From assembly GCA_035999335.1 (NCBI GenBank), contig DASYGV010000077.1, positions 7,064-71,063 of the forward strand: a stretch of 64,000 nt of DNA, written 5' to 3'. The first letter of the stretch is position 1, and every line of letters begins with the position of its first letter. The position numbers and the translations under genes were made by a program. Shown piece by piece: positions 3,672 through 62,169 of this stretch. This stretch comes from Thermoanaerobaculia bacterium (GTDB lineage Bacteria > Acidobacteriota > Thermoanaerobaculia > Gp7-AA8). The notes below the pieces were generated by a model that saw nothing but the letters and a program-made list of their open reading frames with translations, was not told the origin of the DNA and did not search any database.

Positions 3672-3677
3672 CTTGCT

Positions 3678-14208: not shown

Positions 14209-14256
14209 ACCAACGCCCGTAGAAATCGGCACGCCGCTTGCCGCGTTACGAGCGTC

Positions 14257-26256: not shown

Positions 26257-26340
26257 AGTGCTGGGTGCTGAGTGCTGAGTGCTCAGACCCACCACCCAGG
26301 GCGGGCGGGACTCAGCACTCAGCACCCAGCACTCAGCACT
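26257..26340. repeat. Palindromic element, family 4: (A/G)GTGCTG heptad x4 in each arm (bidirectional hairpin between convergent genes)
   Basis: Left arm 26257-26286 and right arm 26311-26340 are complementary apart from 3 positions. The stop of the M20 gene lies in the right arm. Confidence 0.6.
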
Positions 26341-27796: not shown

Positions 27797-27814
27797 GTGC
27801 GAATGGTAATGTGT

Positions 27815-27861
27815 TGGGGCCCGGGCATTCTGCCCGGCGCCGGGCTGGAAGCCCGGGCCCC
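27815..27861. repeat. REP-like element, family 2
   Basis: GGGGCCCGGGCATTCTGCCCGGCGCCGGGCTGGAAGCCCGGGCCCCC in the divergent intergenic region. Confidence 0.55.
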
Positions 27862-27867
27862 CATCAC

Positions 27868-42944: not shown

Positions 42945-44348
42945 TCACCGCCGCACGGAGCGCCGCCGCCCGCCCGGCATTTCGATCTTCGCCCACGACG
43001 TCGCCCAGGTTCCGTTCTTCGCGTGGATCTGCGTCGTCCAGAACGACGCGTCGTCGACCGGATCGACGAGCGTGGTCGTGTAGTCGCCCCAGCGATCGTC
43101 GAACGTCACCGCCGTTTCCCCCGCGCGGATCGGTGCGACCGTGCTGACGCGGCCGAGGAAGTCGCGATAGATGTAGCCGGATGCGGCGTACTGCGTCGCG
43201 GAAAAATGTCCGAAGCCGATCAGCATCGAGCCATGACGGTTCACCGCGATGGATGGATAAGCGAAGACGCGTCCTTGCGGATCCGTCAGCGAGCCCCACT
43301 CCGCGTCACCCGTGTCCGGGTCGAACTTGCACCACACGATCGTCGAGGAAGCACCCGGCGCGTCGCGCGTGAGCGTCACGTAGATCTTCCCGTGCCGCTC
43401 GACGGCGTTCTGGACCACGTCGTAGCCGCCATCGAGCACGAACGCGGTGCCGAGTTGCGGGAGATACGGCTCGGCCGTTCGCCACGAGGGCGGCTCGGCG
43501 ATGAAGCGCACGCTGGAGGCGCCGAGGCGCTGCACGGCGATGCCGTTGTTGGAGACGGAGCTGACGACGTATTCGACCGCGCGATCGGTGCTCACCGGCT
43601 GCGCGTAGTCCAGGCTCACGTTGTATTGCGTCAGCGGGAGCGTCGGCGGCATCGCGTAGAGATGCTGCTTTTGCACGGATGCGAACACGGCGTTGTTTGA
43701 CGGCCAGCGCAGCGTGCCGAAGACCACGGTGTCGCGCGTGATCGCCAGCATCGAGAAGTCGCAGTCCGAAACGGAGAGCTGGTAGCGTCGCCACGTGCCG
43801 GTCGGATCGCCGCTCTCCGAGACGGCGAACATCATCGCCTCTTCGTCGAAGATGGTCATCATCACCCAGCGGTCGGCGCCGGCGTCGTACACCGCGCGCG
43901 GGTCGTAATACACGCCACTCGGGGAGTTGGCCGACCAGAACTGCGACTGCGCGACGGTCTTCAGAACGTTGCCGTCGCGGTCGTGCACGATGATGCGCGC
44001 ATTCGAGATGCTGAGGACGTGCGCCGGACCGACCGCGCCCGTCGCGTCGGGAGGAGTCAGGTTCTTCGACGTGTCGGAGTCGAAGACCGTCGTCATCGGC
44101 GGCGGCGCGATCGTGACCGCCGGCGCGGAAAGCTCCCCGGACGAGCTCGGCGCTTCGAGGCGCGCACGGAATTGCGGAACGTGACGATGGACGATTCTGC
44201 GCCGCTGCTCGAGGAACGGCCTCGCGGCCAGCTCGCCCATCGCCGCGCGCGGGAGCGCAACCGCGTGGACGATTTCCTGCGCGACGACTGGGATCGAGAG
44301 GACGAGGGACAGGAGAAGCGCGGAGAACGAACGAGGAAAGGTCATCAT
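42945..44348 (-). CDS. Exported hypothetical protein
   Basis: Internal ATG pair at 44348 gives MMTFPRSFSALLLSLVLSIPVVAQ; 467 aa, beta-rich composition. Confidence 0.6.
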   Translation of the reverse strand: MMTFPRSFSALLLSLVLSIPVVAQEIVHAVALPRAAMGELAARPFLEQRRRIVHRHVPQFRARLEAPSSSGELSAPAVTIAPPPMTTVFDSDTSKNLTPPDATGAVGPAHVLSISNARIIVHDRDGNVLKTVAQSQFWSANSPSGVYYDPRAVYDAGADRWVMMTIFDEEAMMFAVSESGDPTGTWRRYQLSVSDCDFSMLAITRDTVVFGTLRWPSNNAVFASVQKQHLYAMPPTLPLTQYNVSLDYAQPVSTDRAVEYVVSSVSNNGIAVQRLGASSVRFIAEPPSWRTAEPYLPQLGTAFVLDGGYDVVQNAVERHGKIYVTLTRDAPGASSTIVWCKFDPDTGDAEWGSLTDPQGRVFAYPSIAVNRHGSMLIGFGHFSATQYAASGYIYRDFLGRVSTVAPIRAGETAVTFDDRWGDYTTTLVDPVDDASFWTTQIHAKNGTWATSWAKIEMPGGRRRSVRR

Positions 44349-44549: not shown

Positions 44550-46418
44550 ATGGATTTCATCCAGGCAATCGCAGACGAACACGTCTACCTCTTCGACGGC
44601 GCGATGGGGACGATGCTCTATTCGAAGGGCGTCTTCATCAACAAGTGCTACGACGAGCTGAACGTCCGCAACCCGGAGATCGTGCTCGAAGTGCACCGCC
44701 AGTACGTCCGGGCCGGCGCGGAGATCCTCGAGACCAACACCTACGGCGCGAATCGCGTGAAGCTGCACGGCTTCGGCATCGAGAACGAGCTGCGCGACAT
44801 CAACCTGCGCGCCGCGGAGATCGCGCGCAAAGCCGCGGGCGACTCCGTGTACGTCGCCGGCGCCATCGGTCCCCTCGGCATCCGTATCGAGCCCTACGGA
44901 CCCACCGCGCTCGACGAAGCGCGCGACATCTTCCGCGAACAGGCCACCGCGCTGAACGACGCCGGCGTGGATCTCTTCATCTGCGAGACCTTCTCCAACA
45001 TCAGCGAGATCGAGCAGGCCGTGGCCGCGGTCCGCGAGATCTGTTCCCTTCCGGTCATCGCGCAGATGACCATCGGCACCGACGGCCGCACGATCTTCGG
45101 CGACGTGCCGCGCGACTTCGCGCAGCGCCTCGACCGGGCCGGCGCCGACGTCATCGGCATCAACTGCTCGGTCGGTCCCGATCTCATGCTCGACGCGATC
45201 GAGGAGATCGCCGCCGTCACCGCGAAGAAGATCTCCTGTCAGCCGAACGCCGGCTTGCCGCGCGACGTGAACGGGCGGCAGATGTACATGGCCTCCCCGG
45301 AGTACTTCTCGAAGTACGCGAAGAGGCTCATCCACAAGGGCGTCAAGTTCATCGGCGGCTGCTGCGGCACGACGCCGGAGCACATCAAGATGATGTCCGA
45401 CGCGGTGCGTCCGCTGTCGCCGCGGCGCTCGTTCGTGGTCATCGAGCGCAACGGCAAGTCGGGCGAAAAAGGCGCGGGCTTCGAGCCGCTGCCGATGGAG
45501 ACGCGCTCGAACTGGGGACGCAAGCTGGCCGCCGGCGAGTTCGTCACCACGATCGAGATCGTGCCGCCGAAGGGTCCCAACGCCGACGCGATGCTCAAGC
45601 AGGTCGAGACGATCAAGGCCGCGGGCGTGGACGGCGTCAATGTCCCCGACGGGCCGCGCGCGCAGAACCGCATGGGCGCGATCGCGGTCGCGGTGCTGCT
45701 GCAGCAGCGCATCGGCATCGAGGCCGTGCTGCACTACTGCTGCCGCGACCGCAATCTCCTCGGCATGCACAGCGATCTCCTCGGCTGCGCCGCGCTCGGA
45801 CTGCGCAACATGCTGCTCATCACCGGCGATCCGCCCAAGATGGGTCCTTACCCCGAGGCGACGGCGGTGTTCGACATCGACTCGATCGGCCTGACGAACA
45901 TGGTCAGCCTGATGAACCGCGGCCTCGACCTCGGCGGCAACCCCTTCGGCGAGCCCACGCGCTTCACCATCGGCGTCGGCGTGAATCCGGGCCACCTCGA
46001 CCTCGAATACGAGCTGAAGCGCCTCGAGTGGAAGGTGAAGGCCGGCGCCGAGTACGCGATCACCCAGCCGGTGTTCGACGTCCGCCAGCTCGAGTATTTC
46101 CTCCAGCGCATCGAGCACCTGAAACTCCCGATCGTTGCCGGCATCTGGCCGCTGCTGTCCTACCGCAACGCGCAGTTCATGAACAACGAAGTCCCCGGCG
46201 TGTCCGTCCCCGACGACGTAATGGAGCGCATGCGCATCGCATCGGAAAAGAGCAAAGAGCACGCGCTCCACGAAGGCGTGACCATCGCCCGCGAAACGCT
46301 CGAGCGCGTCCGCGATCGCGTCGCAGGCGTGCAGGTGAGCGCGCCGCTGGGCCGCGTGGATCTCGCGCTGCAGGTGTTCGAGGGGATGAACGCAATACAC
46401 GCCACTCTGTCATCCTGA
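44550..46418 (+). CDS. yitJ: Bifunctional homocysteine S-methyltransferase / 5,10-methylenetetrahydrofolate reductase (YitJ-like)
   Basis: N-terminal Hcy-binding domain (LFDGAMGTMLY, GGCCGTTPEHI) fused to an MTHFR domain (LHYCCRDRN, ITGDPPK). Stop codon lies in a family-1 repeat arm. Confidence 0.9.
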   Translation: MDFIQAIADEHVYLFDGAMGTMLYSKGVFINKCYDELNVRNPEIVLEVHRQYVRAGAEILETNTYGANRVKLHGFGIENELRDINLRAAEIARKAAGDSVYVAGAIGPLGIRIEPYGPTALDEARDIFREQATALNDAGVDLFICETFSNISEIEQAVAAVREICSLPVIAQMTIGTDGRTIFGDVPRDFAQRLDRAGADVIGINCSVGPDLMLDAIEEIAAVTAKKISCQPNAGLPRDVNGRQMYMASPEYFSKYAKRLIHKGVKFIGGCCGTTPEHIKMMSDAVRPLSPRRSFVVIERNGKSGEKGAGFEPLPMETRSNWGRKLAAGEFVTTIEIVPPKGPNADAMLKQVETIKAAGVDGVNVPDGPRAQNRMGAIAVAVLLQQRIGIEAVLHYCCRDRNLLGMHSDLLGCAALGLRNMLLITGDPPKMGPYPEATAVFDIDSIGLTNMVSLMNRGLDLGGNPFGEPTRFTIGVGVNPGHLDLEYELKRLEWKVKAGAEYAITQPVFDVRQLEYFLQRIEHLKLPIVAGIWPLLSYRNAQFMNNEVPGVSVPDDVMERMRIASEKSKEHALHEGVTIARETLERVRDRVAGVQVSAPLGRVDLALQVFEGMNAIHATLSS

Positions 46419-46439
46419 GCCGCGCAGACGGCGAAGGAC
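46409..46439. repeat. Family-1 element, left arm only
   Basis: GTCATCCTGAGCCGCGCAGACGGCGAAGGAC; supplies the last codons (LSS) and the TGA of the YitJ-like gene. Confidence 0.5.
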
Positions 46440-46797
46440 CCCCTTGCATTGAGCGCTTTACCGTTTTCGCGACCGCGACTCGCCGCGATCCTCGCACATG
46501 CGACAACCACCTGTGCTGGAACCTCCCGTATTACACGTCGTCAGCGCTCCAATTCGCCGCGCTCTGCGTCATTTTTGTTCCATAGCGCGGCATGTTCCAT
46601 CACATCGCGACAAACGCGATGAGAGTGCCCATACGTAGACCAGGCGAGTACAAGTTGGAGTAGGACGTAGGCGGACGATGGATGGTCCCCATCCTCTCCG
46701 GAAGGGATCATGAGCACTCGGAAGCTGCGAACGGCATCGTGCTTCGCGATATAGTTGCCGGCACTCGCGATCGGCCCTGCGAAAAATTGGAGGTTGC

Positions 46798-47664
46798 TTG
46801 GAAGGCTGCCTTTTCATCATCTTGGTCATCGTCGCCGCTCTTATCGCTATACCCATCAGCATCTCGCAAGCCGAGAAGAGACGCGAAGCCGCGGCTCAGG
46901 AAGCGGCGCGCGAGAGGGCCGAGCGCGAGCGGGCTGAAGCCGAGCGCCAACGCGATTTCGCACAGCAGAACCAATTTATCACTCAAATACGGAGCATCAA
47001 CGAAGAATCACTCAGTGCTTTTGAATCGATGCCAGTCGAGGTAGAGACGGCGGAAAAGTATCTAGACCAAGCTGAAGTAGATTTTTCCGAAGGAGCTTTC
47101 GCTCCGTTTTGGACCTCAGTCGAAAAAGCGACCTTGGCTCTCGCGAGATTCGACGAGAATGTCTCGAAGATCGAGAGGAATTCGTCTAAGTATGTTGATT
47201 TGGTAAAAGGGTACAGGGGTCGGTCGCCAGTGTTCTCCATATCACCGGACTCGACACCGAAGTTGAAGATTGCTTTTGAGACGTCGAAGCGAATGAGCGA
47301 GATTGTTCGTAAGGCGCAGCGCAACTTTGAATTCTCCTTGATCTACGAACAGAGGAAAACCAACCAGATCCTGGTCGCGGGTTTCAGGAGTCTAGCGCAA
47401 GCCTTGGAGGAGATGACTTGGAGGATCACTTCCTCAATCGATGACCTTACGAACTCGGTTGATAGAATGAGTTCGACGCTGAACGCATCATTACAAAAGA
47501 TTCACGATCAAACTGAGAGGATTGCGGTGAGCGCAGAGAAACATCGCGAAGAAGTTGCGAAAGAAGCATCTGGCAGAGGCGAGAGAGAGCGTAAAACACT
47601 CGAAATGCTCGACAACCTTCAGCGGAAACGCTATCCCAGTATTATTCATGGTGGCTTGCGGTAA
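46798..47664 (+). CDS. Hypothetical membrane-anchored coiled-coil protein
   Basis: TTG start 4 nt after GGAGG; N-terminal TM FIILVIVAALIAIPI; Glu/Arg/Ala-rich helix; AT-richer DNA. Confidence 0.55.
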   Translation: MEGCLFIILVIVAALIAIPISISQAEKRREAAAQEAARERAERERAEAERQRDFAQQNQFITQIRSINEESLSAFESMPVEVETAEKYLDQAEVDFSEGAFAPFWTSVEKATLALARFDENVSKIERNSSKYVDLVKGYRGRSPVFSISPDSTPKLKIAFETSKRMSEIVRKAQRNFEFSLIYEQRKTNQILVAGFRSLAQALEEMTWRITSSIDDLTNSVDRMSSTLNASLQKIHDQTERIAVSAEKHREEVAKEASGRGERERKTLEMLDNLQRKRYPSIIHGGLR

Positions 47665-47849
47665 ACAGGCGGTCTGAGTATTACGTACTAAGAAATGGCG
47701 CGATCTACAGGATGCTTTCGTTCCTGAGGTCGCGACCATCTATGAGGCCAACATCAACATACGGTCGGCGACGCGGCGAAGCGAAGGATCGCGGAGCGTG
47801 CAAAGAGCGGGCTACGCAGCGTGAATCATCCACAGCTGTACTCGCTGGG

Positions 47850-48191
47850 TTATTGCGTCTCCCGGATGACGAAGTCTCCGCCCGGCGATGTCGCCTTCAG
47901 CAATGCGTCCAGTTTTTCGAGAGTCGGTGCGGCTTCGCCCCGCTCATATCGCGCGTAAGCATTTCGCGACGTCGCGCTGAGTCGCGATGCCATATCTCTT
48001 AGCGAAGCGCCGCTTGCTGCCCGGCGGCGGCGCAGTAAGAGCGCGACCATGGACGTCGCGTCAGAACCGGAGACCTCGAATTCAGCACGGCCCTTTTCGT
48101 GTACGGTTGCGTAGAAGTCGCTGCGGTTCACGGCGGTTTCGAGCCAGTCCTTCACCATCTCGAGGGCCTCGCGTCGTGTGCGGCCTTGCAA
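47850..48191 (-). CDS. XRE-type HTH protein resembling the C-terminal part of HicB antitoxins (possibly 5'-truncated)
   Basis: REALEMVKDWLE (end of a HicB-like N-domain) then ASLRDMASRL..SRNAYARYERGEAAPTLEKL HTH. Only a TTG start 1 nt after the upstream stop, or an ATG 11 codons in. Confidence 0.55.
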   Translation of the reverse strand: MQGRTRREALEMVKDWLETAVNRSDFYATVHEKGRAEFEVSGSDATSMVALLLRRRRAASGASLRDMASRLSATSRNAYARYERGEAAPTLEKLDALLKATSPGGDFVIRETQ

Positions 48192-48192
48192 C

Positions 48193-49572
48193 TCAACCCC
48201 CGTCCACCACGGCGATCTGGGTATTGACGCGAATGTTGTCTGGCGCGTCGACGCCCCGCTTCTCGTAATCGGTGAACGTGAGCTTCACCCCGGGGCGGAA
48301 GATGAGGCAATGGGTCGACCCGCCGAAGTGGAACATGCCCAGCTGATCGCCCTTGTTGACGTGGGCACCCGGCTGCACCGTGATCTGGCAGCTCGACACC
48401 TCGGCCATGCCCACCGGCACCACGCACATCAGCCCGATCGCGGGATTGTCGGCCTCGATGAAGATGAGCGCCCGCGTGGCTACGGCTGTGAGAAAGGCCT
48501 GGGAGTCGTTGGGCGCGGCAGGGTCGGGCCCCGAGGGACTGAAGAAGCCCTGGTGAAGGTTCTCGAGATAGTAGGAGCCATTGACCACGTAGGCCTTCTT
48601 GATCGTCCCGCTCACCGGGCTGTGCCAGCGGTGGTAGCTGAGCGCGCTGAGGAACGCTTGATAGACCGTTCCCCCTGAGAACTGCGGCGTGTCGTCGTCC
48701 CAGTTGAGCATGTTCTCGAGCGAGTAGGGCTGACCCTTGAGCCAGAACGAATCCGAGAGCGCGACGTCGTGCCTCACTGCGAGCGGGGCCGACTCGCAGG
48801 CGTTGACGATCACGCTGTCGTCGCCCGCTCCGTACACGGGCCGCACGCCGTCGCGGAAGGTGCGGGTGAAGAAGTCGTCCCAGGACTTGAAGCCGTAATA
48901 GGCGTCGCTGGGGTCGCAGTTGAAGATGTCCGCGAACGTCGCGCCGGGGCCGATGGGGTTGGGTGGCTGGCCAAGGGCCGAGGTGGCCACGCTGACCATC
49001 TCCGCCTGTGCCGCGGGGCTCAGCCACGCGATGGCGTCGTTGGCCGGGTCGTTCTGGACCAGCACGTAGCGCGACTCCTCGGTGACCAGGAACGTCGACC
49101 AGTACTCGAGGATCTTCTTGAGCTGCTGGTTGACCAGTGCGTTCGAGAATACGTCGTAGCCGAAGACGGTGGCCATCGGCCAATCGAGCAAGGCATTGAT
49201 CGGAAACCCGATCATCCCGGCCGGCTGCTGATTCTTGCCTCTTCCCGTCTGATAGGCCTCCGGTGCCGTGAACATGATCGCGTTGAGCAGCACCAGGAAG
49301 TCTTCGAAAGTCTGCGGTTCCGGCTCCCAGGTGAGCGGCGTTCTTTTCTCGAGCCGGTACGCCTCGGCGAACATCCCCTGGACGTTCGCATAGAGCACCG
49401 GGTCGGAGTAGACCATCTGCTGGAATTCCGCGATGGGTCGGATGAGGGGCCTAGGATGCTCGCTCGCGAGCCTCTGTAGCTTCTGAATCCAGCGTTCGAT
49501 CTCCTCGCGGTCTCGGGGCAGCCAGCCGCCCAGACGCGCGTTCCCGGTTCTCTCATGCGTGCTGTCGCTCAT
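48193..49572 (-). CDS. Long-form phosphatidylserine-decarboxylase-family (pyruvoyl) decarboxylase, PsiD-like
   Basis: SYHRWHSPVSG and GMFHFGGST self-cleavage motifs. At 459 aa it is much longer than membrane Psd, and by memory it aligns along its length with fungal PsiD. Confidence 0.8.
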   Translation of the reverse strand: MSDSTHERTGNARLGGWLPRDREEIERWIQKLQRLASEHPRPLIRPIAEFQQMVYSDPVLYANVQGMFAEAYRLEKRTPLTWEPEPQTFEDFLVLLNAIMFTAPEAYQTGRGKNQQPAGMIGFPINALLDWPMATVFGYDVFSNALVNQQLKKILEYWSTFLVTEESRYVLVQNDPANDAIAWLSPAAQAEMVSVATSALGQPPNPIGPGATFADIFNCDPSDAYYGFKSWDDFFTRTFRDGVRPVYGAGDDSVIVNACESAPLAVRHDVALSDSFWLKGQPYSLENMLNWDDDTPQFSGGTVYQAFLSALSYHRWHSPVSGTIKKAYVVNGSYYLENLHQGFFSPSGPDPAAPNDSQAFLTAVATRALIFIEADNPAIGLMCVVPVGMAEVSSCQITVQPGAHVNKGDQLGMFHFGGSTHCLIFRPGVKLTFTDYEKRGVDAPDNIRVNTQIAVVDGG

Positions 49573-49675
49573 CGGCGCGTTCCTCCTGTGATGCGTCCTC
49601 GCTGTAGGAGAGTGGCGTCGTCGAAAATCCCTACCTTCTGGAATGCCGAATCATCGTCGGACACAATCGGCGCGA

Positions 49676-50842
49676 TCAGTCGCCGCAGGCGAGAGGGATC
49701 GTCAATCTCCACATGTCGTTGAGCAGCACCGGCGCGAACTCCGCGGTCGCTCCCCCGAAGATGTAGAGCTCGTAGGCCGTCACGGTCTTGCGAGAGAAGT
49801 AGAACTGGCCGAACCTCGGCGCCGGCGCCGGCCCCGTCATCGCGGTGTCCACGCGCGTCCAGGTTCCCATGTCGAGATTGGCGTCGAGATCGAAGGACCA
49901 GACATCGGACAGGGTGGTCCCGTCGAACCGGCTGCCCCCGAAGAGCCAGATGCGGTTGTTGTCCTCATCAACGATCAGCTTCGCGTTGTCGCGGTGGCCC
50001 GGTCCGCCGGTCTCGTCGAAGACCAGCTGCTTCCAGGTCTCCTTGTGGACGTCGAGCATCCAAAGATCGCCGAGGTAGTTCTCCGGCGTGAACAGACCGG
50101 TCCCGTTCACCGCGTCGTTCGTGTATCCGCCGTAGACGAACAGGGCGTTCCAGCCCTCGGAGTAGACGAGCGGATGATGGGCTCGGGCGCGCGGAGCGGC
50201 AGAGCCGGTCGAAACCTGCTTCCATCCGTTCTTGTAGCGGACCAGGTCGTGCTGGAGGCCGTCCGGACGGTTGACGAAGGCCGGCAGCGTCGACGACGAG
50301 CCCGAGAAGGCGTATGCGACGGTCTTGTGTTTCCCCTTCTCTCGCACGGCAACCGCCTCGGTGGAGCGGTTGGCCCGTCCGATCTCGGCCGCGTTCTGCG
50401 AGATCTCTGTCCACCCTTGCACCAGATCGAACTGGAATGTGTCCTGGTGCGTGAGGTCGAGCCCGCGGCGGAAAGGACCTCTCCCGCCGGAGACGATCAG
50501 CGCGTCGTCCTCGGCGACGGCCCACATCATCGCCTCGGCCCTGGCGGACGGCCCGCCCGGGTACTGGCCGAGGTCGTCCCAGGTCAGCGTGTCGACGTCG
50601 AAGGCGCTGAAACCGGCCACGGGCTCGTCGTTCGGGAAGGTCCCGTTCAACCCGCCGAAGATGTAGAAGACGCCCGCGTGATAGGCGCTCGAACCGTCCC
50701 AGACGGGGTCGGGGACGACGCCGCCCTGCGGAATCTCGGTCCAGTAAGGCAAGCACGACTGAGCGGCGGTCGGGCGAATCCAGGCGAAGGAGAGCAACAG
50801 AAAAGCGACGAGAACGATCCGAAACGGAAGCCTGCTTGTCAT
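49676..50842 (-). CDS. Exported Kelch-repeat beta-propeller protein
   Basis: Internal ATG at 50842 gives a signal peptide. Recurrent (I/V/L)FGG / VYGG blade motifs and W-containing strands. Confidence 0.75.
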   Translation of the reverse strand: MTSRLPFRIVLVAFLLLSFAWIRPTAAQSCLPYWTEIPQGGVVPDPVWDGSSAYHAGVFYIFGGLNGTFPNDEPVAGFSAFDVDTLTWDDLGQYPGGPSARAEAMMWAVAEDDALIVSGGRGPFRRGLDLTHQDTFQFDLVQGWTEISQNAAEIGRANRSTEAVAVREKGKHKTVAYAFSGSSSTLPAFVNRPDGLQHDLVRYKNGWKQVSTGSAAPRARAHHPLVYSEGWNALFVYGGYTNDAVNGTGLFTPENYLGDLWMLDVHKETWKQLVFDETGGPGHRDNAKLIVDEDNNRIWLFGGSRFDGTTLSDVWSFDLDANLDMGTWTRVDTAMTGPAPAPRFGQFYFSRKTVTAYELYIFGGATAEFAPVLLNDMWRLTIPLACGD

Positions 50843-50940
50843 TCGGCTGACTCCTTTGGTTTCCCGCAGCGGTGTCATCATAGCCCCATATTTGCGGATC
50901 GGTGGATAGAAGTACTCTGTCCGCAACAGAAGGAGTCCCC

Positions 50941-53373
50941 ATGAGACATCAGAGAACCCTCCATCGGCTCCCCGTGCTCGGGCTGACGCTCGCCCTGCTG
51001 CTCGGGCTCATGGTGGCGGTCCCCGGCGCCGCCCAGTACGCGAAGGACACCGTCACCTACCAGATCACCAACGTCTCCGGCGCCGCCACCCGTTCGGCCA
51101 TCGCCGCCACCGGTGCGGACATCTTCGAAGTCGGCCATGACTACGTCCTCGTCGAGGCCACGGCGGAGGAAGCTACGGCCCTGACGCAGCAAGGCTTCAC
51201 GCTCGTGAAGTTCCGAACGCAGGACGAGTTCGAGGAAGCCTTTCCGCCGGCCGACTCGAACTATCACGACTATGCGGAGATGGTGGCGGAGCTGCAGCAG
51301 GCCGCGCTCGACCATCCGGCAATCTTCTCGCTGTTCAGCCTCGGCATCTCGTATCAGGGGCGGACGGTGTGGGCCGGCAAGATCTCCGACAACGTGGACA
51401 CCGACGAGGACGAGCCCGAGGTGCTGTTCACGCACCATCAACATGCGCGCGAGCATCTGACCGTCGAGATGGCCCTCTACACCCTGCGCATGCTGACCGA
51501 TGAATACGGTACTGATTCGCAGATCACCAATATGGTGGACGGCCGTGAGATCTGGCTCGTTTTCGACGTGAATCCTGACGGTGGCGAGTACGACATCGCC
51601 ACCGGCAGCTACGGTTCCTGGCGCAAGAACCGCCAGCCCAACGCCGGCTCGAGCGCCATCGGCACCGATTTGAACCGCAACTGGGGCTACCTCTGGGGCT
51701 GCTGCGGCGGCAGCAGCGGCACGCCGAGCAGCTCGACCTACCGCGGCGCGTCGGCCTTCTCGGCTCCCGAGACCCAGGTCGTGCGAGACTTCGTCAACAG
51801 CCGCGTGATCGGCGGCGAGCAGCAGATCACCACTCATATCGACTTTCACACTTTCGGTGAGCTGGTCATGTGGCCCTACGGCTACACCTTCACCGACGTG
51901 CCGGCCGACATCACTCAGGACGATCACGACACGTTCGTGGCCATGGGCCAGGCCATGGCCTCGACGAACGGCTACACGCCACAACAGATGAGCGATCTGT
52001 ACATCACCGATGGGACGATCTGCGACTGGCTGTACGGCGCCCACCAGATCTTCTCGTACACCTTCGAGATGTACCCGGTGACCTCGGGGCAAGGGGGCTT
52101 CTATCCGCCGGACGAAGTGATCCCGGCCCAGACCGCCCGCAACCGCGCCTCGGTCTTGTATCTGCTCGAGCAGTCCGCCTGCCCGTATGCCGTGATCGGC
52201 AAGCAGGGGCAGTATTGCAACGTGCTGCCGGGCGCGCCGGGTGCGCTCACGGCCACGGCGGGCTCGGAGCAGATCAGCCTCACCTGGACCGCCGCCAGCG
52301 GCGCGACTCTCTACAACATCCACCGCGGCGACGCGAGCGGCGGGCCGTACACGCCCATCCAGAGCGACTGGCCCGGCACGAGCTTCACCGACACCGGTCT
52401 GACGAATGGGACCCCCTATTTCTACGTGGTGACCGCCACGAACGCCACCGGCGAGGGCCCTGCTTCGAACGAAGCCTCGGCCACGCCGTTCGAGCCGGTA
52501 TCAACCACCACCGCCCTCGCCTCCGCGCCCAACTCTTCGACGTTCGGACAATCCGTCACCTTCACGGCGACCATCACCTCCGGCAGCGGCGTGCCCGCGG
52601 GCACCGTCACGTTCACCGAGGGGGCGACCGTCTGGGCATCTAACGTCGCGGTCAACGGTGCCGGCCAGGCATCGTTCAGCACCACGGCGCTCACCGTGGG
52701 TAGCCATACCCTCACGGCCACCTTCACCGGCGCCAGCGGCTGGTTGGGTAGCAGCGGCACGAACGGCGGCGCGCCGCAGATCGTGAATCCGGCTCCCATC
52801 ACGGTGACCTTCACTTCGGGGGGCGCCCAGGACGGCTGGGTGCTGGAGTCGGGCGAGACCTCCAACGTCGGCGGCTCGCTCAATGCCACCAGCAGCAACA
52901 GCAGCGCTTTGCGGGTGGGCGACAACAACCAGGACCGGCAGTACAAGACCGTGGTTTCGTTCGACACCTCGTCGATCCCCGACGGCGCCACGATCGTGTC
53001 GGTGACCCTGCGTCTACTCCGCGGCTCGCTGACCGGTACCAACCCCTTCACCACGCACGGGACCTGCTGGGTCGACGTGCAGAACGGCAGCGGCTTCTCG
53101 GGGTCGACGACTCTGCAGAACGGGGACTTCCAGGCGGCGGCCACCGCCGTCCAGGCGGCGACTCTGAGCAACGCCGCGTCCAACGGCACTTGGTCGACCG
53201 GCACCCTGAACGCCGCGGGCCTTGCAGCCGTGAACAAGACCGGGACGACGCAGCTGCGCGTCTCGTTCAACCTCGACGACAACGACGACACGAACAACGA
53301 CTATCTCGGTTACTACTCCGGTGAAAACGGGACCGCGGCCAACCGGCCGCAACTCGTGGTGACGTATCAGTAG
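50941..53373 (+). CDS. Secreted M14 zinc carboxypeptidase with FN3, Ig-like and C-terminal beta domains (copy 1)
   Basis: Signal peptide; [10 protein letters not shown] zinc motif; FN3-like [17 protein letters not shown]...[11 protein letters not shown]; Ig-like [18 protein letters not shown]. Confidence 0.85.
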
Positions 53374-53395
53374 ACGCGGTCAACAGGAGTTGCGT

Positions 53396-55810
53396 ATGAA
53401 GTTCCATCGGGTGCTCACCGGCTTTCTCTTCATTGTGTTGGCGTTCGTCCTCACGGCGCCCGCCGCCGCGCAATCCGCGAAAGAGACCGAGACGTACAAG
53501 ATCTCCGGTGTCCATGACGCCGTCGCGCGCTCGATCATTGTCAGCACGGGTGCCGACATCTTCGAGGTCGGCCACGATTACGTCCTCGTCGAGGCCACGG
53601 CGGCGGAAGCCGCGGCGCTGCTGCAGTCGGGCTTCACGCTGGTGAAGTTCTCGACGCAAGACGAATTCGAGAATGCCTTTCCGCCGGCCGACTCGAACTA
53701 TCACGACTATGCCGAGATGGTGGCGGAGCTGCAGCAGGCCGCGCTCGATCATCCGGCGATCTTCTCGCTGTTCAGCCTCGGCGTCTCGTACCAGGGTCGC
53801 ACCATCTGGGCCGGCAAGATCTCCGACAACGTCGGCACCGACGAAGACGAGCCCGAAGTGTTGTTCACGCACCATCAGCATGCGCGCGAGCATCTCACCA
53901 TCGAGATGGCCCTCTATACCCTGCGCATCCTCACCGACGAATACGGCACCGATCCCCAGATCACCGGTCTGGTGGGCGGGCGCGAGATCTGGATGGTCTT
54001 CGACCTGAATCCGGACGGCGGCGAGTACGACATCGCCACCGGGAGCTACGTCTCGTGGCGCAAGAACCGGCAGCCGAATGCCGGCACGAGCGCGATCGGC
54101 ACCGACTTGAATCGCAACTGGGGCTACCTCTGGGGTTGCTGCGGCGGCAGCAGCGGCACGCCGAGCAGCGAGACCTATCGCGGTGCGTCGGCTTTCTCGG
54201 CGCCAGAGACGCAGGTCGTGCGCGACTTCGTCAACGGTCGTGTGATCGGCGGTACGCAGCAGATCAGGGCCCAAATCGACTTCCACACCTACGGTGAGCT
54301 GGTCATGTGGCCCTATGGCTACACCTTCACCGACGTGCCGGCAGACATGACCCAGGACGATCACGACACGTTCGTGGCGATGGGCCAGGCCATGGCCGCG
54401 ACGAACGGCTACACGCCGCAACAGGGCAGCGATCTGTACATCACGGACGGGTCGATCCGCGACTGGCTGTACGGCGTGCACCACCTCTTCTCCTTCACCT
54501 TCGAGATGTACCCGGTGACCTCCGGGCAGGGAGGTTTCTATCCGCCGGACGAGGTGATCCCGGCCCAGACCACGCGCAACCGCGCCGCGATCCTCTATCT
54601 GCTCGAGCAGTCCGCCTGCCCGTATGCCGTGATCGGCAAGCAGGGCCAGTACTGCAACCTGCCGCCAGGCGCGCCGGGTGCGCTCTCAGCCACGGCGGGC
54701 GACGGACAGATCGGCCTGACCTGGACCGCCGCGAGCGGCGCGACCCTCTACAACATCCACCGCGGCGAGGCGACCGGCGGCCCATACACGCCAATCCAGA
54801 TCGACTGGCCCGGCACGAGCTTCACGGACACCGGCCTGACCAACGGGACCCCGTACTACTACGTGGTGACCGCCACCAACACGGCCGGCGAGGGACCGGC
54901 ATCGAACGAGGCCTCGGCCACGCCGTTCACGTCGGTCGCGACCAGCACGGCGCTCGCCTCCGCGCCCAACCCTTCGACGTTCGGACAATCCGTCACCTTC
55001 ACGGCGACCATCACCTCCGGCAGCGGCGTGCCTGCAGGCACCGTCACGTTCACCGAGGGCGCCACCACGTGGGTCTCGAACGTCACGGTCAACGGCGCCG
55101 GCCAGGCCGCGTTCAACACCACCGCGCTCAGCGTGGGGAGCCACACGCTCACCGCCACGTTCACCGGCGCCAGCGGCTGGTTAGGGAGCAGCGGCACCAA
55201 CGGTGGCTCGCCGCAAGTCGTGAATCCCGCTCCCATCACGGTGACCTTCACTTCCGGGGGCTCTCAGGATGGCTGGGTGCTGGAGTCGGGCGAAAACACC
55301 AACGTCGGCGGCTCGCTCAGTGCCACCAGCAGCAACAGCAGCGCGCTACGCGTGGGCGACAACAACCAGGACCGGCAGTACAAGACCGTGGTTTCGTTCG
55401 ACACCTCGTCGATCCCCGACGGCGCCACGATCGTATCGGTGACCCTGCGCCTGTTGCGCGGCTCGCTCACCGGCACCAACCCCTTCACCACCCACGGCAC
55501 CTGCCGGGTCGACGTGCAGAACGGCAGCGGCTTCTCCGGATCGACGACCCTCCAGAACGGAGACTTCCAGGCCACGGCCACCGCCGTCCAGGCGGCGAGC
55601 CTGAGCAACGCCGCGTCCAACGGCACTTGGTCGACCGGCAGCCTGAATGCCGCGGGCCTTGCAGCCGTGAACAAGACGGGGACGACGCAGTTGCGCGTCT
55701 CGTTCAACCTCGACGACAACGACGACACGGGCAACGACTATCTCGGCTACTACTCCGGCGAAAACGGGACCGCGGCCAACCGGCCGCAGCTCGTGGTCAC
55801 CTACCAGTAA
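53396..55810 (+). CDS. Secreted M14 zinc carboxypeptidase paralog (copy 2, tandem duplicate)
   Basis: ATG at 53396, 6 nt after AGGAG. Same domain order as copy 1 with long identical peptide stretches. Confidence 0.85.
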
Positions 55811-55920
55811 CCACCACGGACTGGGCCGGGACGAACCACCGAGGTGGTCTGTCCCGGCCACAGTGAGAGCGAAGCTGGATGAGGGCGTATCTTTCGGTTC
55901 ATCCGCGAACCCTGCCCCCA

Positions 55921-56100
55921 CACCGCCCTCGGAACTCGCAACCCGCAACTCGCCACTCCTCCGAATCACCGCGATCAACACATCGTCATCCGGCACGACC
56001 GCCCGCTTCCTGGCGTTCTTTCCTCCGTGACTAGCGATCGTCTCGCCATGTCGTCGTAGGTCGCTGTCCACACCGTGCGGGCCAAGGATGTAGTGAGCAC
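55921..56100 (-). pseudogene. Truncated copy of the 3' end of a SpoIIE/PP2C phosphatase gene
   Basis: 55921-56001 matches 57031-57111 with 7 mismatches in 81 nt (hand alignment) and encodes VVPDDDVLIAVIRRSGELRVAS. Similarity fades toward 56100. Confidence 0.55.
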
Positions 56101-56104
56101 TCTG

Positions 56105-56332
56105 GTGCAGGTCTCGGCGCCGCTGGGCCATGTGGATCTCGCGCTGCAGGTGTTCGAGGGGATGATGGTGCGCGCCTCCGCTGCGCTGTCCTCCTGAGTC
56201 GCGTAGACGACGAAGGACTGCGTGCATTGGGCGCTTCGCGCGCGATCGGAAGGGGATCGGCTTTCGCGCTTCGCCGTTCCTGGCCGCCGCGATCACTCGC
56301 GTTTCGCGACAACCGGTCGCAATGTAACCTCC
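56105..56332 (+). pseudogene. Truncated copy of the 3' end of the YitJ-like gene plus its downstream repeat
   Basis: Aligns with 46329-46526. The core GCCGCTGGGCC..GTGGATCTCGCGCTGCAGGTGTTCGAGGGGATGA has 2 mismatches in 47 nt, followed by a degenerate family-1 arm. Confidence 0.6.
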
Positions 56333-56433
56333 GGCGCAACTGAGTTTGTCTTCGACTCTTGCGCCCGCTGAAAGTTACGGACTGGTTGGCGCTGGTGAGC
56401 GCTACCGTTGGGCGCACGAGAAACCGCCGAGCG

Positions 56434-56748
56434 TCAGTCAAACTTGAGCCGAGTACGCCAATAGTTCGGCTTTCGACTTGTGTGCGCCAAGGCCACGATC
56501 TGCAGGTGACCGCTGCGCTGCCGGTAGACCACAAAGAAGGGGAAGTGTCGCAGCGGAAAGCGACGGACGAGACCACGAGTGCGGCTTACGGATTCTCCAA
56601 TCTCCGGGTGAGCGGAAATCAGATCGGCCGCCCCTTGAATGTCTTGCCACAATCTGTCGCCCAGTCCAGGCGATTCAGACTCATATCGGCGCAGTTAATA
56701 CTCAATTTCGTCCTGAGCGAACGAACTTGGGTGGACCGGTATGGTCAC
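56434..56748 (-). pseudogene. ParE/RelE-family toxin gene with an in-frame TAA at codon 18
   Basis: GTG at 56748 overlaps the antitoxin stop (GTGA). Translation is VTIPVHPSSFAQDEIEY*LRRYESESPGLGDRLWQDI...RRFPLRHFPFFVVYRQ..IVALAHTSR, with TAA at 56695-56697. Confidence 0.6.
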
Positions 56749-56978
56749 CGGCCGAACACGTCCCGTTCAATTCGCGCGCGGAACTCATTCCAGTCCGACG
56801 TAACCGCGTCGCCACTGTCGAGCGCAGCACATCGACGCTCGATCTCACGCGCCCATGCCTCGTCGACACCTTCACGATCGGAGTCGTCGAGACTTTGGAG
56901 CAGTCGCGCCGCTATCTCCGCGCGATCGTGCTCGGGTAACTCCAGCGCGATTGTCAGAACCTTCTTGGCGTCATCCAT
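56745..56978 (-). CDS. Addiction-module antitoxin (Unstab_antitox-like)
   Basis: LELPEHDRAEIAARLLQSLD...VDEAWAREIERR pattern typical of the putative addiction module component family. Confidence 0.7.
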   Translation of the reverse strand: MDDAKKVLTIALELPEHDRAEIAARLLQSLDDSDREGVDEAWAREIERRCAALDSGDAVTSDWNEFRARIERDVFGR

Positions 56979-56995
56979 CGCCGCTCGAGTTTAGT

Positions 56996-58158
56996 TCAAG
57001 ACGGCGAGGATCCGATGGCCGAACCACCCTCGGCACTCGCAACCCGCAACTCGCCACTCCTCCTGATCACCGCGATCGACACATCGTCATCCGGCACCAC
57101 CGATCCAATGTACGTTCGCCACTCGCCGAGGATCGATTCGATCAGCGACGCCGCGGAGGCATCCGGATGCCATCCGGCGACCACTTCGACGTAGGCGTCC
57201 CCGAACTCCTTCTCCTGAAGGTTGCGCGCTTCGGTGAGGCCGTCCGAGTGGAGGAGGAGGCGCTCGCCGGGGGCGAGGGTGCCGGAGGTGACTTGCCAGG
57301 TGAGGTTGGCTTTGACGCCGAGGGGATAGGCGCCGCGGCCGATGCGCTCGGTGACGCGGCCCGCGGCGTCGATCTTCAGTACCGGCGGGTGGCCGGCGAT
57401 CATCGCGAGATACGTGCCGTCCGGTTGGAGCAGGAAATAGCAGCAGGAGAAGAATGAGCGCGAGCCGCCGGTGCGGCAGAGAATGCGATTGAGCGACGCC
57501 GTGATCGCCGCGGGCGACGGATCGACTTCGAGCTGCGTGCGGAACGCCGCGTGCGCGACGGCCATCACCAGGCCCGCGGCCATGCCGTGTCCGGATGCGT
57601 CGCCGAACAGCACGGCGAGGCTGCCGTCGGGCATCGGGACGAAATCGTAAATGTCGCCGCCGACTGTGTTCGCGATGCGATTGAAGGCCGCGATGTCCCA
57701 CTGCTCAGTGCGCGGCATCTGGTGCGGGATGAGGCTGGCCTGCAGGTCGCGCGCGAGTTGCAGCTCGTCGCGGTACTTCAGTTTGTCGATCAGCTCCATC
57801 GCCAGCAGCAACACCATCAACAGAAACGTCGCCGCGATCTCGAGCAGCGTCCAGAGCGGCGGCTGCTCCATCTGCGACGTCAGGGAGAGGAGGCAGACGA
57901 AGAAGAAGACGAACGCGATCGCGAAGAGGATGCGCCGGTGCGGTGCGAGGCGCTTGGCCAGCCCGTAGAAGATCGCGCTGACCGTGCGCACCCAGCGCCG
58001 CAAACGCCTCGGCTCCCGCTCGATGGACGCGCTGTGCTCGGCCATGAGCATCTTCCGCGTCTCCGGCCACTCGAGCGAATAGAGATTCGTCACGTCGTCC
58101 GAGGTGAGGGACGTGAACGTGCTCTTGCCGAGGTCGAGCCAGTCGCGCAGGCGGGCCA
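56996..58158 (-). CDS. Membrane-associated SpoIIE/PP2C-family protein phosphatase
   Basis: Two TM helices then GGDIYDF, FGDASGHGMAAG, LLHSDGLTEA, DDVSIAVIRR motifs. Start uncertain: GTG at 58158 preferred over the ORF maximum of 58294, which would overlap the divergent kinase. Confidence 0.7.
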
Positions 58159-58217
58159 CAGGGGGATTGTACGGAGTGATGGACTTTGAGTTGCGAGACG
58201 AGGGATACACTCCGCGA

Positions 58218-61200
58218 ATGCGCCGATGGCTCCCCAGCGTGTTGATCGCGGCGTCCGCGCTCCACGCACAGGAGCTCCCCTTCACCCACTTCACGACCGA
58301 CGACCTCCTTCCTTCCGCAAGCGTGCAGAAGGTCGTTCAGGACCATCAGGGATTCATCTGGCTCGCGTTCTACTCGACCGGCATCGCGCGGTACGACGGG
58401 AAGACGATGGAGAGCTACGGCGTGGCGGACGGCATCGCCGATCCGACCGTGCGCGAGATCGTCGAGGACCGCACGCATCGTCTGTGGGTCGGCTCCGAAG
58501 CGGGGCTCGTCGTTTCGGAGAAGCCGCTCGACGCGTACGCTCCGGGCGAGCGCGTGCGATTCGTTTCCAACGGACTGACCGCGTCGCGCATGCGACGCAA
58601 CTGCGTCATCGCGGCGCCGGATGGATGGGTGTGGGCGGGAACGCAGGACGGGATCGTGCGCTATCGCTTCAATGGCACGCGCCTCGAGAGCGAGACTATC
58701 GACCTCCGCGCGGTCGAGACTCCCGTGGCCGCGCAGTCGATGTTCGTGCGTCGCGACGGCTCGATGCTCGTGAGTCTCGCCGGCGGCACGATCGTCTCGA
58801 TCGATACGAACGGAAAGGTGAGCGGCGTGGTCGCTCACACCACACCCGCGACGGGCGCTCTCGCGGAGACACCGGACGGCACGCTGTGGGGTGGCACGGT
58901 GAACGGTTCGGTGTGGCGGCTGGATGGCGGCGGGCTGGAAGCCCGCGCCCCCGTGATTGTGAATCACGATCTCAGCGAACGCATCGTGGCGCTACACGTC
59001 ACGCCCGCGGGCGAGCTGTGGGCAGCGAGCCTCGGCAGCGGCGCAGTGCGCATCGACGTGCGCGATCCGTCGCATCCGTTCGTCGTCACGCGCGCGAACG
59101 GCCTGCTCGCGGAGACGCTCTGGACGCTCTTCGAAGACCGCGAGGGCAATCTCTGGTTCGGCCAGAACGGTGGCGTCTCGCGTCTGCGCAAAGGCTATCG
59201 GGCGTTTCATGCGTGGACCGCGCGCACGCGTCCCGCGCTGCCCGATCCCGGTACGTTCGCGGTGCTGCCGGTCGCGGACGGCATGTGGGTCGGCACGGGC
59301 AACGGTCTGGCGAAGATGACGGGCAGCGGGACGACGACGTACCGCACGAGCGACGGCCTGCGCTCGAATCAGGTCTACGCGATCGCGGACGACGGCACCG
59401 GCACGGTGTGGATCGGCACCTCGGCCGGCGTGAATTCGGTGTCGCCCGACGGCGTGGTGAAATCGCACGGGCTCGACACGACGTACGCGATCCGCACATG
59501 GGGGGCCGGCGCCTCGCCGGCCCCCCATGGCGCCACAATCTGCTTTGCTGGCAACTATGGCGTGAGCTGTTTCGCGGACGGCGAGTGGTCGCGCTTCGGG
59601 CGGGAGTCCGGTCTTTCGCCCGGCGGCGCGACGAGCATTGCGTTCGACGATCAGGGACAGCTCTGGGTCGGCAGTCCCGATCGCGGACTCTTTCGCTCGA
59701 CCGCGCCGCTCGCGCCGAAGGTCAAGTTCGCGCGCGTCTGGAGCAGGGCGAACGGCGCTCCGTCGGACAGCGTCCGCTCGCTGCTCTTTCACGACGGCAA
59801 GTTGTGGGTCGGTACTAGCGCGGGACTCTCGATCGTTGGCAAGACTGCGGTCGCAGTGTTCGAAGGACGTCCCGCTATCGGGATGGCGCCGTCGAACGAC
59901 GGCTCGCGCGTCTGGGTGAGCAACAACGCGGGCCTCGTCGAAGTCGACGCGCGCACGTTGCGTGTGATCGCACACGTCACGCGGGCCGACGGCCTGCTCG
60001 ACGACGAAGCGTGGGCCTACGGCCCGGTCGCCGCCGATGCACAGGGACACATCTACCTCTGCACGCCTCGCGGTCTCTCCGTCTTCAACCCCGTCGCGCG
60101 CGAGTTGAACACGATCGCGCCGATCGTGCGTCTGCGGCGCATCGACCGCGACGGGAACGACGTCGGATTCGAATACGCGGCGCTCACGTTCGGCGACGAG
60201 TCGCGCGTGCACTTCCGCACGCGGCTCGCGGGATTCGATCGCGACTGGTCGGACGAAACGCGCGACGCCAAGATCCGCTACACGAACCTGCCGGCGTTTC
60301 TGTTCACGCGGCGATACACCTTCGAAGTGAAGGCGCACAACGCGGACGAGGTGTGGTCCGAGCCGCTGTCGTATCAATTCACCATCGCGCCGCCGCCGTG
60401 GCTGCGCTGGTGGGCGGTGCTCGCGTATCTGGTCGTCATCGTCGCAGCGGCGTGGGCCGCCAACCGCTGGCGCATGCGCCAGCTCCAGCGGAAGAACCGC
60501 GCCCTCGAGGACCTCGTCTTCGCGCGCACGGACGAGATCCGCTCGCAGGCGCGCGAGCTGGAGACGCTCGACCGCATCGTCGAGGTCATCAACCGCGAAA
60601 TGAGTCTCGAGAACGTGCTGAAGAGCATCCTCGAACAGGGGATGCGGCTCTTCCCGAACGCGGAGAAGGGAGCGTTCCTGAAGTTCGATCACGAGACGCG
60701 GCGCACGGAAGTCGTGGGCGTCGCGGGCTACGATCCGGAGCTCTTCCGCGGGATCTCGTTCTCGTTCGAAGAAGCGATACAGCGCTACTCCGGCCGCGCC
60801 GAGCAGCTCGGCGAAGGCGTGTATCTCATCCGCTCCGCCGACTTCCGCCATCTCGCCGCGGCGGAGAAGATCAAGAACTTACTCCCGGAGCCGAAGGCGA
60901 TGCTGGCGATGGCGGTCACGCTCGGCGGACGGATGGAAGGCTTCCTGATCTTCGACAACTTCACGAACGAGGACGCGTTCGGGCCGACCGACCTGCAGAA
61001 GCTCGCGCGCGTTCGCGAGCACGCGGTGTCCGCGATCGCGAAGGCGCGCATCCTCCGCGAGCTGCAGACGAAGAATGAACAGGCCGAGGATGCGAACCGC
61101 GCGAAGTCGATCTTCCTGGCGAACATGAGCCACGAGCTGCGCACGCCGATGAACGCGATCATCGGTTTCTCGGAGATTCTCGCGGAGCGGCTGCAGGGGC

Positions 61201-62048: not shown

Positions 62049-62163
62049 GGGGGCGGGCTTCCAGCCCGCATGCGGCGGGCATCCTGCCCGGCGCCTATCG
62101 CCGCAAGAACGCCGCCGGGCTGGAAGCCGCGGCGGAGGCGGGCAGGATGCCCGCCCCCCCTAG
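62045..62163. repeat. Two family-2 REP-like units in inverted orientation (about 115-nt palindrome between convergent genes)
   Basis: CTAGGGGGGCGGGCTTCCAGCCCGC..GGGCATCCTGCCCGG ... CCGGGCTGGAAGCC..GGGCAGGATGCCCGCCCCCCCTAG. The kinase stop TAG is in the left end. Confidence 0.65.
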
Positions 62164-62169
62164 CGCGAC

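Follow-up and report, generated by a model that had tools for sequence, protein, structure and literature searches.

Around half of the gene-exchange hotspots in bacteria have no recognisable mobile element, and gene gain at these sites has mostly been inferred statistically (Oliveira, Touchon, Cury & Rocha 2017, Nat Commun; PMC5635113). Here, we describe a site of this kind in a 64,000-nucleotide (nt) stretch of DNA from a Thermoanaerobaculia bacterium (Acidobacteriota; assembly GCA_035999335.1, contig DASYGV010000077.1, positions 7,064 to 71,063), the whole of which is referred to as the window. The gap between two convergent core genes in the window, called A and B, contains two cargos, X and Y, which lie side by side and are separated by truncated copies of the 3' ends of both flanking genes. 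In our judgement there is about an even chance that this allele combines two different hotspot alleles in a hetero-tandem, A3'-X-B3' and then A3'-Y-B3', produced by a Campbell-type single crossover of a circularised segment from a sister lineage.

In E. coli conjugation, circularised molecules that integrate by a single crossover have been shown to duplicate 109-950 bp of the homologous end; true homology-facilitated illegitimate recombination (HFIR), by contrast, generally deletes recipient DNA (PLoS One 2011; PMC3240628). As single crossovers gave duplications and HFIR mostly leaves deletions, a duplication scar such as the one described here makes a Campbell-type event the first candidate. 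Tandem islands are also built when integrative and conjugative elements (ICEs) and cis-mobilisable elements accrete at a gene's 3' end, as at the fda site of Streptococcus thermophilus, where the islands are separated by copies of the target 3' end, as they are here. Such arrays need both a tyrosine integrase and precise att cores.

Interleaved repeats and the joint between two truncated gene ends

The left flank, gene A (44550-46418, plus strand), encodes a methionine-cycle enzyme, a YitJ-like bifunctional homocysteine S-methyltransferase/MTHFR of 622 amino acids (aa; Pfam S-methyl_trans, 1.9e-73; MTHFR, 1.6e-34), which has orthologues with 77-95% aa identity in Thermoanaerobaculia metagenome-assembled genomes (MAGs) and in metagenomes. 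The right flank, gene B (56996-58294, minus strand), encodes a membrane-anchored SpoIIE/PP2C-type phosphatase (Pfam SpoIIE, 3.9e-39).

Two repeat pairs, one from each flank, were recovered both by self-BLAST of the window and by a repeat finder. On the A side, 46329-46458 matches 56105-56236 with 79% identity over 134 nt (E=1.6e-23). The identity is 90% over the leading 61 nt, inside which there is a perfect 34-nt tract (46356-46389, equal to 56132-56165), and gapped homology extends to about 46527/56333, with the distal block scoring 31, whereas none of 2000 shuffles scored above 26. On the B side, there is 92.5% identity without gaps between 55922-56001 and 57023-57102, the second copy, which lies within gene B (6 mismatches in 80 nt; E=8.7e-27). 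Both recurrences had been described in a first-pass annotation of this stretch. Its report that the A 3' end returns from 56105 onward, with a core of 2 mismatches in 47 nt, was reproduced here, and so was the recurrence of the B 3' end, although the intact B copy had been placed about 9 nt too high, at 57031-57111.

The first copy of the A-side repeat (46329-46527, plus strand), as delimited by self-BLAST and alignments, consists of the final 90 nt of gene A, a repetitive extragenic palindromic (REP)-like element at 46405-46444 and distal intergenic sequence. Its counterpart is a truncated A 3' end (56105-56333, plus strand; the A3' fragment), which encodes VQVSAPLGHVDLALQVFEGMMVRASAALSS up to a stop codon and likewise includes a REP-like element of its own, with distal intergenic sequence beyond it. 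The truncated B 3' end (55922-56001, minus strand; the B3' fragment) has the translation VVPDDDVLIAVIRRSGELRVASSEGG and still encodes VVPDDDVLIAVIRRSGELRVAS, confirming an earlier claim that it remained coding. The two fragments are arranged back to back with their truncated sides facing each other, and an orphan filler of 103 nt (56002-56104) lies between them at the joint of the tandem units. For the A3' fragment, the homology to about 40 A orthologues begins at 56105, and in 2 of them one base earlier. By BLAST, the filler had no match to the upstream sequence of A or B, the rest of the window or about 90 comparison loci. Nor did it match elsewhere in the metagenomes, in which it is present at single-copy depth with no excess.

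The order along the window is A3' - X - B3' fragment, then A3' fragment - Y - B3', as the first-pass annotation had stated, and the coordinates show that the repeat copies are interleaved (A1 < B1 < A2 < B2). This order requires a tandem A3'-cargo-B3' unit, which had also been proposed, and the tandem unit in turn requires a single event that linked the B position corresponding to 57102, via the filler, with the A position corresponding to 46329. Two independent target-duplicating insertions were considered and rejected, as they would yield A1 < A2 < B1 < B2 or extra copies instead of the interleaved order.

Part of each repeat is generic. The REP-like element at 46405-46444 (GTCATCCTGAGCCGCGCAGACGGCGAAGGAC) has more copies in the window at 985-1096, 3676-3717 and 14100-14211, and its word depth in soil metagenomes is about 150-1900x, compared with 3-8x for the flanks. 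Within the B repeat, 55926-55958 is a heptamer-type motif with a word depth of 46-90x versus about 8x, which is found in many other flanks and contigs. When these generic motifs are removed, the A repeat keeps a gene-specific core of 61 nt and the B repeat one of 43 nt (55959-56001). The possibility that the similarities were only generic repeat elements, raised earlier as a ground for refutation, is therefore correct for part of their length but not for these cores.

The REP-like element supplies the final codons and the stop of gene A (…LSS, then stop), and does the same for the A3' fragment. The heptamer-type motif (GTTGCGAGT/GTTGCGGGT) is found at the B end at 55926-55958 and 57027-57059, where it is translated as the tail …GELRVAS…, and the B genes of two relatives, L101 and L085, terminate just before it. 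Further long imperfect palindromes (78-84% self-complementary) were seen at 10783-10891, 26257-26340, 27809-27869 and 62041-62167 and are probably of the REP type. In another relative, L100, a 103-nt palindromic REP-like sequence is present as 99% identical copies (1817-1919 and 2322-2424) around a stretch of about 400 nt between B and A. Elsewhere in the window, 2495-3114 and 61113-61708 are 67-85% similar over about 500 nt and are probably paralogous sensor-kinase segments.

The joint is real and is not an assembly chimera, because it is carried by three assemblies, by contigs from several sequencing runs and by a strain variant. The window lies within the Joint Genome Institute (JGI) contig Ga0373492_0000005, and the same junction was found in JGI assemblies of two further samples with 100% and 99.99% identity, making three assemblies in total. 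Logan k=31 contigs of soil metagenome runs were also examined (14 runs with the locus, given X numbers here; the three deepest are SRR11674120, SRR11674061 and SRR11674062). A 462-nt contig (55700-56161) in runs X1 and X2 passes from the end of the second M14 carboxypeptidase gene of cargo X through the B3' fragment and the filler and reaches the first part of the A3' fragment, and a 342-nt contig was present in X3. The filler was spanned by contigs in runs X1, X2, X3, X5, X6 and X10. The contig following 55700-56161 begins at 56136, and the path is broken only at the exact 34-nt repeat, where a k=31 graph has to break. A strain variant, about 1-1.5% diverged, has a single-nucleotide polymorphism (SNP) in the 34-nt repeat, and since this SNP breaks the repeat, single contigs of the variant run through filler and repeat alike (661 nt in X6, covering 55940-56598 with 7 mismatches, and 386 nt in X10). 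The depth is equal over X, the junction and Y. As the junction is present in both strain variants, the structure predates their split.

Integrase-free gene exchange at the A-B site

A and B were found as convergent neighbours in 31 relatives, with 56-95% aa identity. The site is empty in 20 of the 31, with a gap of at most 216 nt between the last conserved residues, while the other 11 carry unrelated inserts of 0.34-7.8 kb. No integrase or transposase was detected by Pfam in the genes of X and Y, in the Pfam tables for about 10 kb either side, or in the cargos of the five relatives that were scanned, and no tRNA, tmRNA or Rfam family was found at the locus, nor any tRNA or Rfam family within about 10 kb of it. 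With 20 empty sites, 11 differing inserts and no integrase in the scanned cargos, it is well supported that the A-B gap is an integrase-free gene-exchange hotspot in soil Thermoanaerobaculia, in line with the first-pass annotation.

The closest relative, L101 (Ga0209382_10000127), in which A is 95% identical in aa and 93% in nt, has a 4.4-kb cargo, called Z, at 834-4924. Cargo Z resembles a conflict system and contains a ParE-like toxin with an antitoxin, a possible ribbon-helix-helix (RHH) protein, an Mrr_cat nuclease, a TIR_2 protein that matches PADLOC TIR effectors, and a membrane protein with two transmembrane segments (CyanoTRADDas_TM). For the insert of L010, Pfam identified a glyoxalase, SnoaL, an XRE-S24 regulator and ParE. 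An extracytoplasmic function (ECF) sigma factor is carried by the inserts of L007 and L017, the latter together with a putative anti-sigma factor outside the Pfam scan, and a radical-SAM-like gene, likewise outside the scan, was read from the sequence of the L009 insert. The B-side cargo boundaries shift by 5-15 nt among the alleles X, Y, Z and that of L148. When 11 window proteins were searched by tblastn against 34 GTDB and 58 metagenome loci, no X or Y genes were found at the A-B site of relatives.

Flank-end duplications around inserts that lack an integrase were also seen at two other loci, in other lineages. In L028 (11294-13961), a duplication of the A 3' end (252 nt at 94% and 78 nt at 96%), with an internal deletion in the fragment, brackets a CHASE3 kinase gene. 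In L130 (11229-15875), which belongs to a more distant lineage and has B facing metH, 132 nt of the metH 3' end plus its terminator hairpin are duplicated with 80% identity, and the duplication brackets a 4.6-kb cargo that has no integrase. This recurrence hints at a general route, for which three cases, the window included, are too few to make a claim.

Cargo X (46528-55921, about 9.4 kb) consists of six genes. From left to right, these encode a low-GC coiled-coil protein of 288 aa (46798-47664, plus strand), an XRE-type helix-turn-helix regulator (47850-48158, minus strand), a phosphatidylserine-decarboxylase-like (PSD-like) protein (48193-49572, minus strand), a Kelch-repeat protein (49676-50926, minus strand) and a tandem pair of paralogous M14 carboxypeptidases that contain fn3 and Big_3_5 domains (50902-53373 and 53390-55810, plus strand), with domains assigned by Pfam. 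The two M14 paralogues have 88% nt identity over 2.35 kb with a period of 2437 nt by self-BLAST, and their nearest homologues outside the locus, with 88-90% aa identity, are single genes in unrelated contexts. None of the X genes had a defence match in PADLOC. At the left edge of X, a low-GC patch at 47000-47500 (48% versus about 65%) lies within the coiled-coil gene, which suggests that this portion of X has a separate foreign origin.

Cargo Y (56422-57022, minus strand; limits set by 92% nt homology to L147) is a type II toxin-antitoxin cassette, with an antitoxin (56745-56978, minus strand; PF09720, 3.7e-13) and a ParE-family toxin (56434-56748, minus strand; PF05016, 2.4e-6). The earlier assignment of Y as ParE/antitoxin was thus borne out for both domains by Pfam. 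Codon 18 of the toxin is a premature TAA (56695-56697) in place of the TAC (Tyr) of L147 and L149, whose toxins are intact at 104 aa; the toxin gene is accordingly a pseudogene and Y a degenerate toxin-antitoxin module. With the antitoxin intact and the adjacent toxin interrupted, the Y antitoxin is an orphan. The cassette of L147, with its intact toxin, has neighbours that differ from those in the window. In the window, the cassette adjoins the B repeat at 57023, and the final 8 or so codons of B are read from the region upstream of the cassette.

On the other side of A, a 467-aa gene lies upstream (42945-44348, minus strand), which has no counterpart in L101 (7222-10793) and for which the only homologues located upstream of A, in a number of MAGs, have 33-41% aa identity. 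There may thus be a second variable region to the left of A. Further to the left, a response-regulator receiver domain fused to CAP12-PCTIR_TIR (35602-36444, plus strand; Pfam table) comes directly after a large GAF/PAS histidine kinase.

Origin of the truncated ends and the proposed single crossover

For the origin of the truncated ends, the codon differences between the copies and the C-terminal tails of A are informative. Six of the nine codon differences are synonymous and three are non-synonymous (binomial p = 0.01-0.03), with the six changes of the B3' fragment comprising 4 synonymous and 2 non-synonymous. They include an AGC<->TCG serine exchange, which involves three base changes, and the TCG of the fragment is common in other relatives. 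The A copies are similar up to residue 613, after which the similarity of the C-terminal tail collapses, and the same pattern is seen between orthologues. In a comparison of 120 A homologues, the resident tail MNAIHATLSS grouped with the closest A proteins (92-93% aa; MTAAHATVSS, MTATQATLTSS), and the fragment tail MMVRASAALSS grouped with a second A sub-lineage (90-91%; MMARTALSS, MMASTALSS, MMARSATSGS). Judged from these codons and tails, the fragments diverged as parts of working genes in another lineage.

The synonymous bias and the tail of the other sub-lineage disfavour a plain in-situ tandem duplication. Between the two mechanisms that the first-pass annotation had offered, the single-crossover integration of a segment from a diverged relative is the better fit, and the earlier interpretation as a whole is partly supported. 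The A3' fragment also has CAT (His) at an invariant Arg codon, which is CGC in the variant strain, and this change looks like decay after inactivation. As possible donors, L153 and L154, the two loci with the fragment-type A tail that were looked up, were rejected, since their sites are empty and their nt identity is only 80-84%.

In the single-crossover mechanism, a short chromosomal segment of a co-occurring sister lineage, including about 90 nt of A at one end and about 107 nt of B at the other, would have become circular, and the filler would be its closure joint. Host homologous recombination between the circle and the resident locus, within a short identical tract, would duplicate the homologous end and set the incoming cargo beside the resident one. 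The few informative sites favour a crossover in the 29-nt identical tract of the B end, in which case a 1,101-bp circle would have entered a locus with resident A-X-B, bringing the B end, the filler, the A3' fragment and its REP element, and the ParE/antitoxin cassette. At three changed places in the gene body of the B repeat, it is the intact copy that equals L101 and L085; at two sites in the tail, it is the fragment that equals L101, L085 and L148. With L101 and L085 taken as native, these five places fit the reciprocal hybrid that would result if the crossover lay in the 29-nt tract. The 34-nt A tract was rejected as the crossover site of the simplest model, because gene A would then gain a tail of the other lineage, yet its body and tail are of one sub-lineage. 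From these sequence patterns, Y, as a 1.1-kb toxin-antitoxin unit, is weakly favoured as the incoming cargo, and the mirror case, with a 9.8-kb circle carrying X entering an A-Y-B locus, is the somewhat less likely alternative.

The two alternative cargos of the first-pass annotation implied that X-only and Y-only alleles should exist. In the survey of the 14 runs, two low-depth k=31 contigs, from runs X7 and X8, skip exactly 9776 nt and pass from the A body to the fragment-type tail and the Y side. In the X8 contig, a 78-nt piece of A body, with 6 mismatches over the 69 nt preceding the repeat, runs straight into a fragment-type tail, REP element and Y side that match at about 98.8%, and in the X7 contig the same divergent A body meets the fragment tail inside the 34-nt tract. 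The two contigs may represent Y-only alleles, and the co-occurring lineage that they come from would in that case be a plausible donor. Other candidates were rejected. The closest homologues of the M14b protein (90% and 88% aa), followed as a lead to an X-only allele, are both single genes in unrelated neighbourhoods. For a Y-only allele, the cassette of L147 (antitoxin 99% aa) is in another context and the contig stops 41 nt upstream; in L148, B is followed by a Z-like remnant, then a toxin-antitoxin pair and then an HxlR-type regulator gene; and the contexts of L149 and L150 are unrelated.

Several points count against the single-crossover mechanism. The parental single-cargo alleles implied by it were not firmly found: the identity step of the X7 and X8 contigs lies exactly at the 34-nt repeat, which is longer than k, so that both could be k=31 graph chimeras, and there was no X-only allele in the loci of relatives or via the closest M14 homologues. 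Neither a circular intermediate nor a back-joint was present in any of the 14 runs, and a repeated run search with Y alone gave no new runs. The crossover site is placed by five informative positions in B, with L101 taken as the stand-in for the native sequence, and L148 is mixed at these positions. The left 27 nt of the A3' fragment matches neither A haplotype in the X7 and X8 contigs. With 29 and 34 nt, the identical tracts would be about as short as RecA-dependent exchange allows. Finally, the mechanism accounts neither for the origin of the filler sequence nor for how the segment became circular.

Another possibility, which we consider unlikely, is that linear DNA of the sister lineage was inserted by HFIR or by another two-joint event, with an invisible homologous joint in A or B and an illegitimate joint in the A or B 3' end of the recipient, giving rise to the fragment/filler junction. 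This process is established in transformable bacteria (PMC3240628) and would make a circular intermediate unnecessary. Homology stops abruptly at 56001/56002 and 56104/56105, with the orphan filler in between, which resembles an illegitimate joint, and an inter-lineage origin of the fragments fits as well. However, HFIR typically deletes recipient DNA, and the outcome here is a duplication. If the event were anchored in B, the entire B3' fragment should be native, yet its 43-nt gene-body part is an outlier compared to L101 and L085. If it were anchored in A, the B3' fragment should look like the L101-like lineage of the A donor, which it does not; both comparisons are weak, as few sites are involved.

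An in-situ tandem duplication of the A3'-cargo-B3' unit by illegitimate or unequal recombination would produce the observed topology directly, and could be reconciled with the two cargos if one of them was later replaced, with gene conversion or allelic replacement by foreign DNA and decay of the fragments. The perfect 34-nt and 29-nt tracts could be conversion tracts in this case, and the CAT (His) codon resembles decay after inactivation. We nevertheless regard this as decidedly unlikely. There is no cargo common to both units, and the synonymous bias, the serine exchange that reproduces a state frequent in relatives and the fragment tail of another A sub-lineage are difficult to envisage for a decaying local copy. 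At least two further events would also be needed, one of them with just 80 nt of homology.

Integrative elements that restore the 3' end of their target gene are common, and a site-specific accretion of integrase-less, cis-mobilisable-like islands could be considered, with the recombinase encoded elsewhere, the A 3' end as att and the 34-nt tract as its core. Cargo X, with a piece of B gained by imprecise excision, would then be an element located between attL and attR. The direct repeats, whose 34-nt core is perfect and lies in the 3' end of a conserved gene, and the similar flank-end repeats of L028 and L130, would be compatible with such islands, although a perfect 34-nt tract in a 61-nt repeat of 90% identity is equally expected of an att core and of a homologous crossover site. 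This explanation appears improbable, given that no integrase lies within about 10 kb either side or in the five Pfam-scanned cargos of relatives, that the B-side boundaries vary by 5-15 nt among X, Y and Z, and that the repeats differ widely in length and identity (61, 132 and 252 nt). It also needs an extra ad hoc step for the B3' fragment, and the resident A tail is native to its own sub-lineage, which is unexpected for a tail derived from an element.

The merging of two strain haplotypes, A-X-B and A-Y-B, into one contig, which the first-pass annotation had named as a possible refutation, is scarcely credible despite the metagenomic source, the related strains sharing the same soils and the 34-nt exact repeat that breaks k=31 graphs, because the joint of B3' fragment, filler and A3' fragment is on unbranched k-mer paths in at least six runs, a two-haplotype bubble gives no path from a truncated B back into a truncated A, all three JGI assemblies, made with large k, are in agreement, variant-strain contigs pass through the 34-nt repeat and the depth is uniform throughout.

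If the single-crossover mechanism is combined with the duplications of L028 and L130, a more general route could be proposed, in which short stretches of homology where convergent core genes end repeatedly let circularised pieces of neighbour chromosomes insert by single crossover in Acidobacteriota, stacking hotspot alleles in tandem with no need for a mobile-element enzyme. Three independent scars of this route would then be represented by the window, L028 and L130. We put this forward tentatively, with more doubt than confidence. If true, this route of island accretion is so far undescribed, and the repeats would also make each cargo excisable again.

Comparison with known systems

The cargos of relatives at the A-B site, among which are toxin-antitoxin pairs, an Mrr-like nuclease and TIR-domain proteins, resemble those of the core defence hotspots of Pseudomonas aeruginosa (Johnson et al. 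2023, NAR; PMC10250203). In contrast, cargo X of the window, with its predicted secreted peptidases, Kelch protein and PSD-like enzyme, is not related to defence.

Compared to ICE accretion, neither an integrase nor a precise site was seen at this locus, and the internal joint also holds the end of the opposite flank. The HFIR described in Acinetobacter, Pseudomonas stutzeri and pneumococcus (PMC3240628) is similar in that DNA of a relative is added beside a homologous anchor with no mobile-element function and with one illegitimate joint. It differs in usually deleting a similar amount of recipient DNA at 3-10 bp of microhomology, whereas a duplication and a 103-nt filler are present here.

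In Campbell-type integration in E. coli (PMC3240628), the homologous segment is directly duplicated around the insert, as it is here, and the 80-200 nt duplicated in the window are near the 109-950 bp reported. Those events involved laboratory plasmid constructs, whereas the window is a natural chromosome, and the presumed circle would be a chromosomal fragment with the ends of both flanking genes and the 103-nt filler.

The class to which the A-B site is closest is that of the integrase-free hotspots (PMC5635113), with which it shares syntenic core flanks, sites that are mostly empty and elsewhere hold unrelated genes, no integrase or transposase, and an inferred exchange through flank homology. 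In the model for these hotspots, a double crossover swaps one allele for another, whereas the scar in the window points to a single-crossover or unequal event by which two alleles were stacked and both flank ends duplicated. The locus therefore preserves a physical scar of hotspot gene gain in an uncultured soil phylum, with duplicated flank ends, a putative closure joint and sites diagnostic of two lineages. If the single-crossover reading is true, hotspots can grow by adding alleles and not just by swapping them, and the added cargo stays flanked by repeats, which would allow its later loss or onward transfer. To summarise, the integrase-free hotspot is a known class, and what is new at this locus is its growth by tandem stacking.

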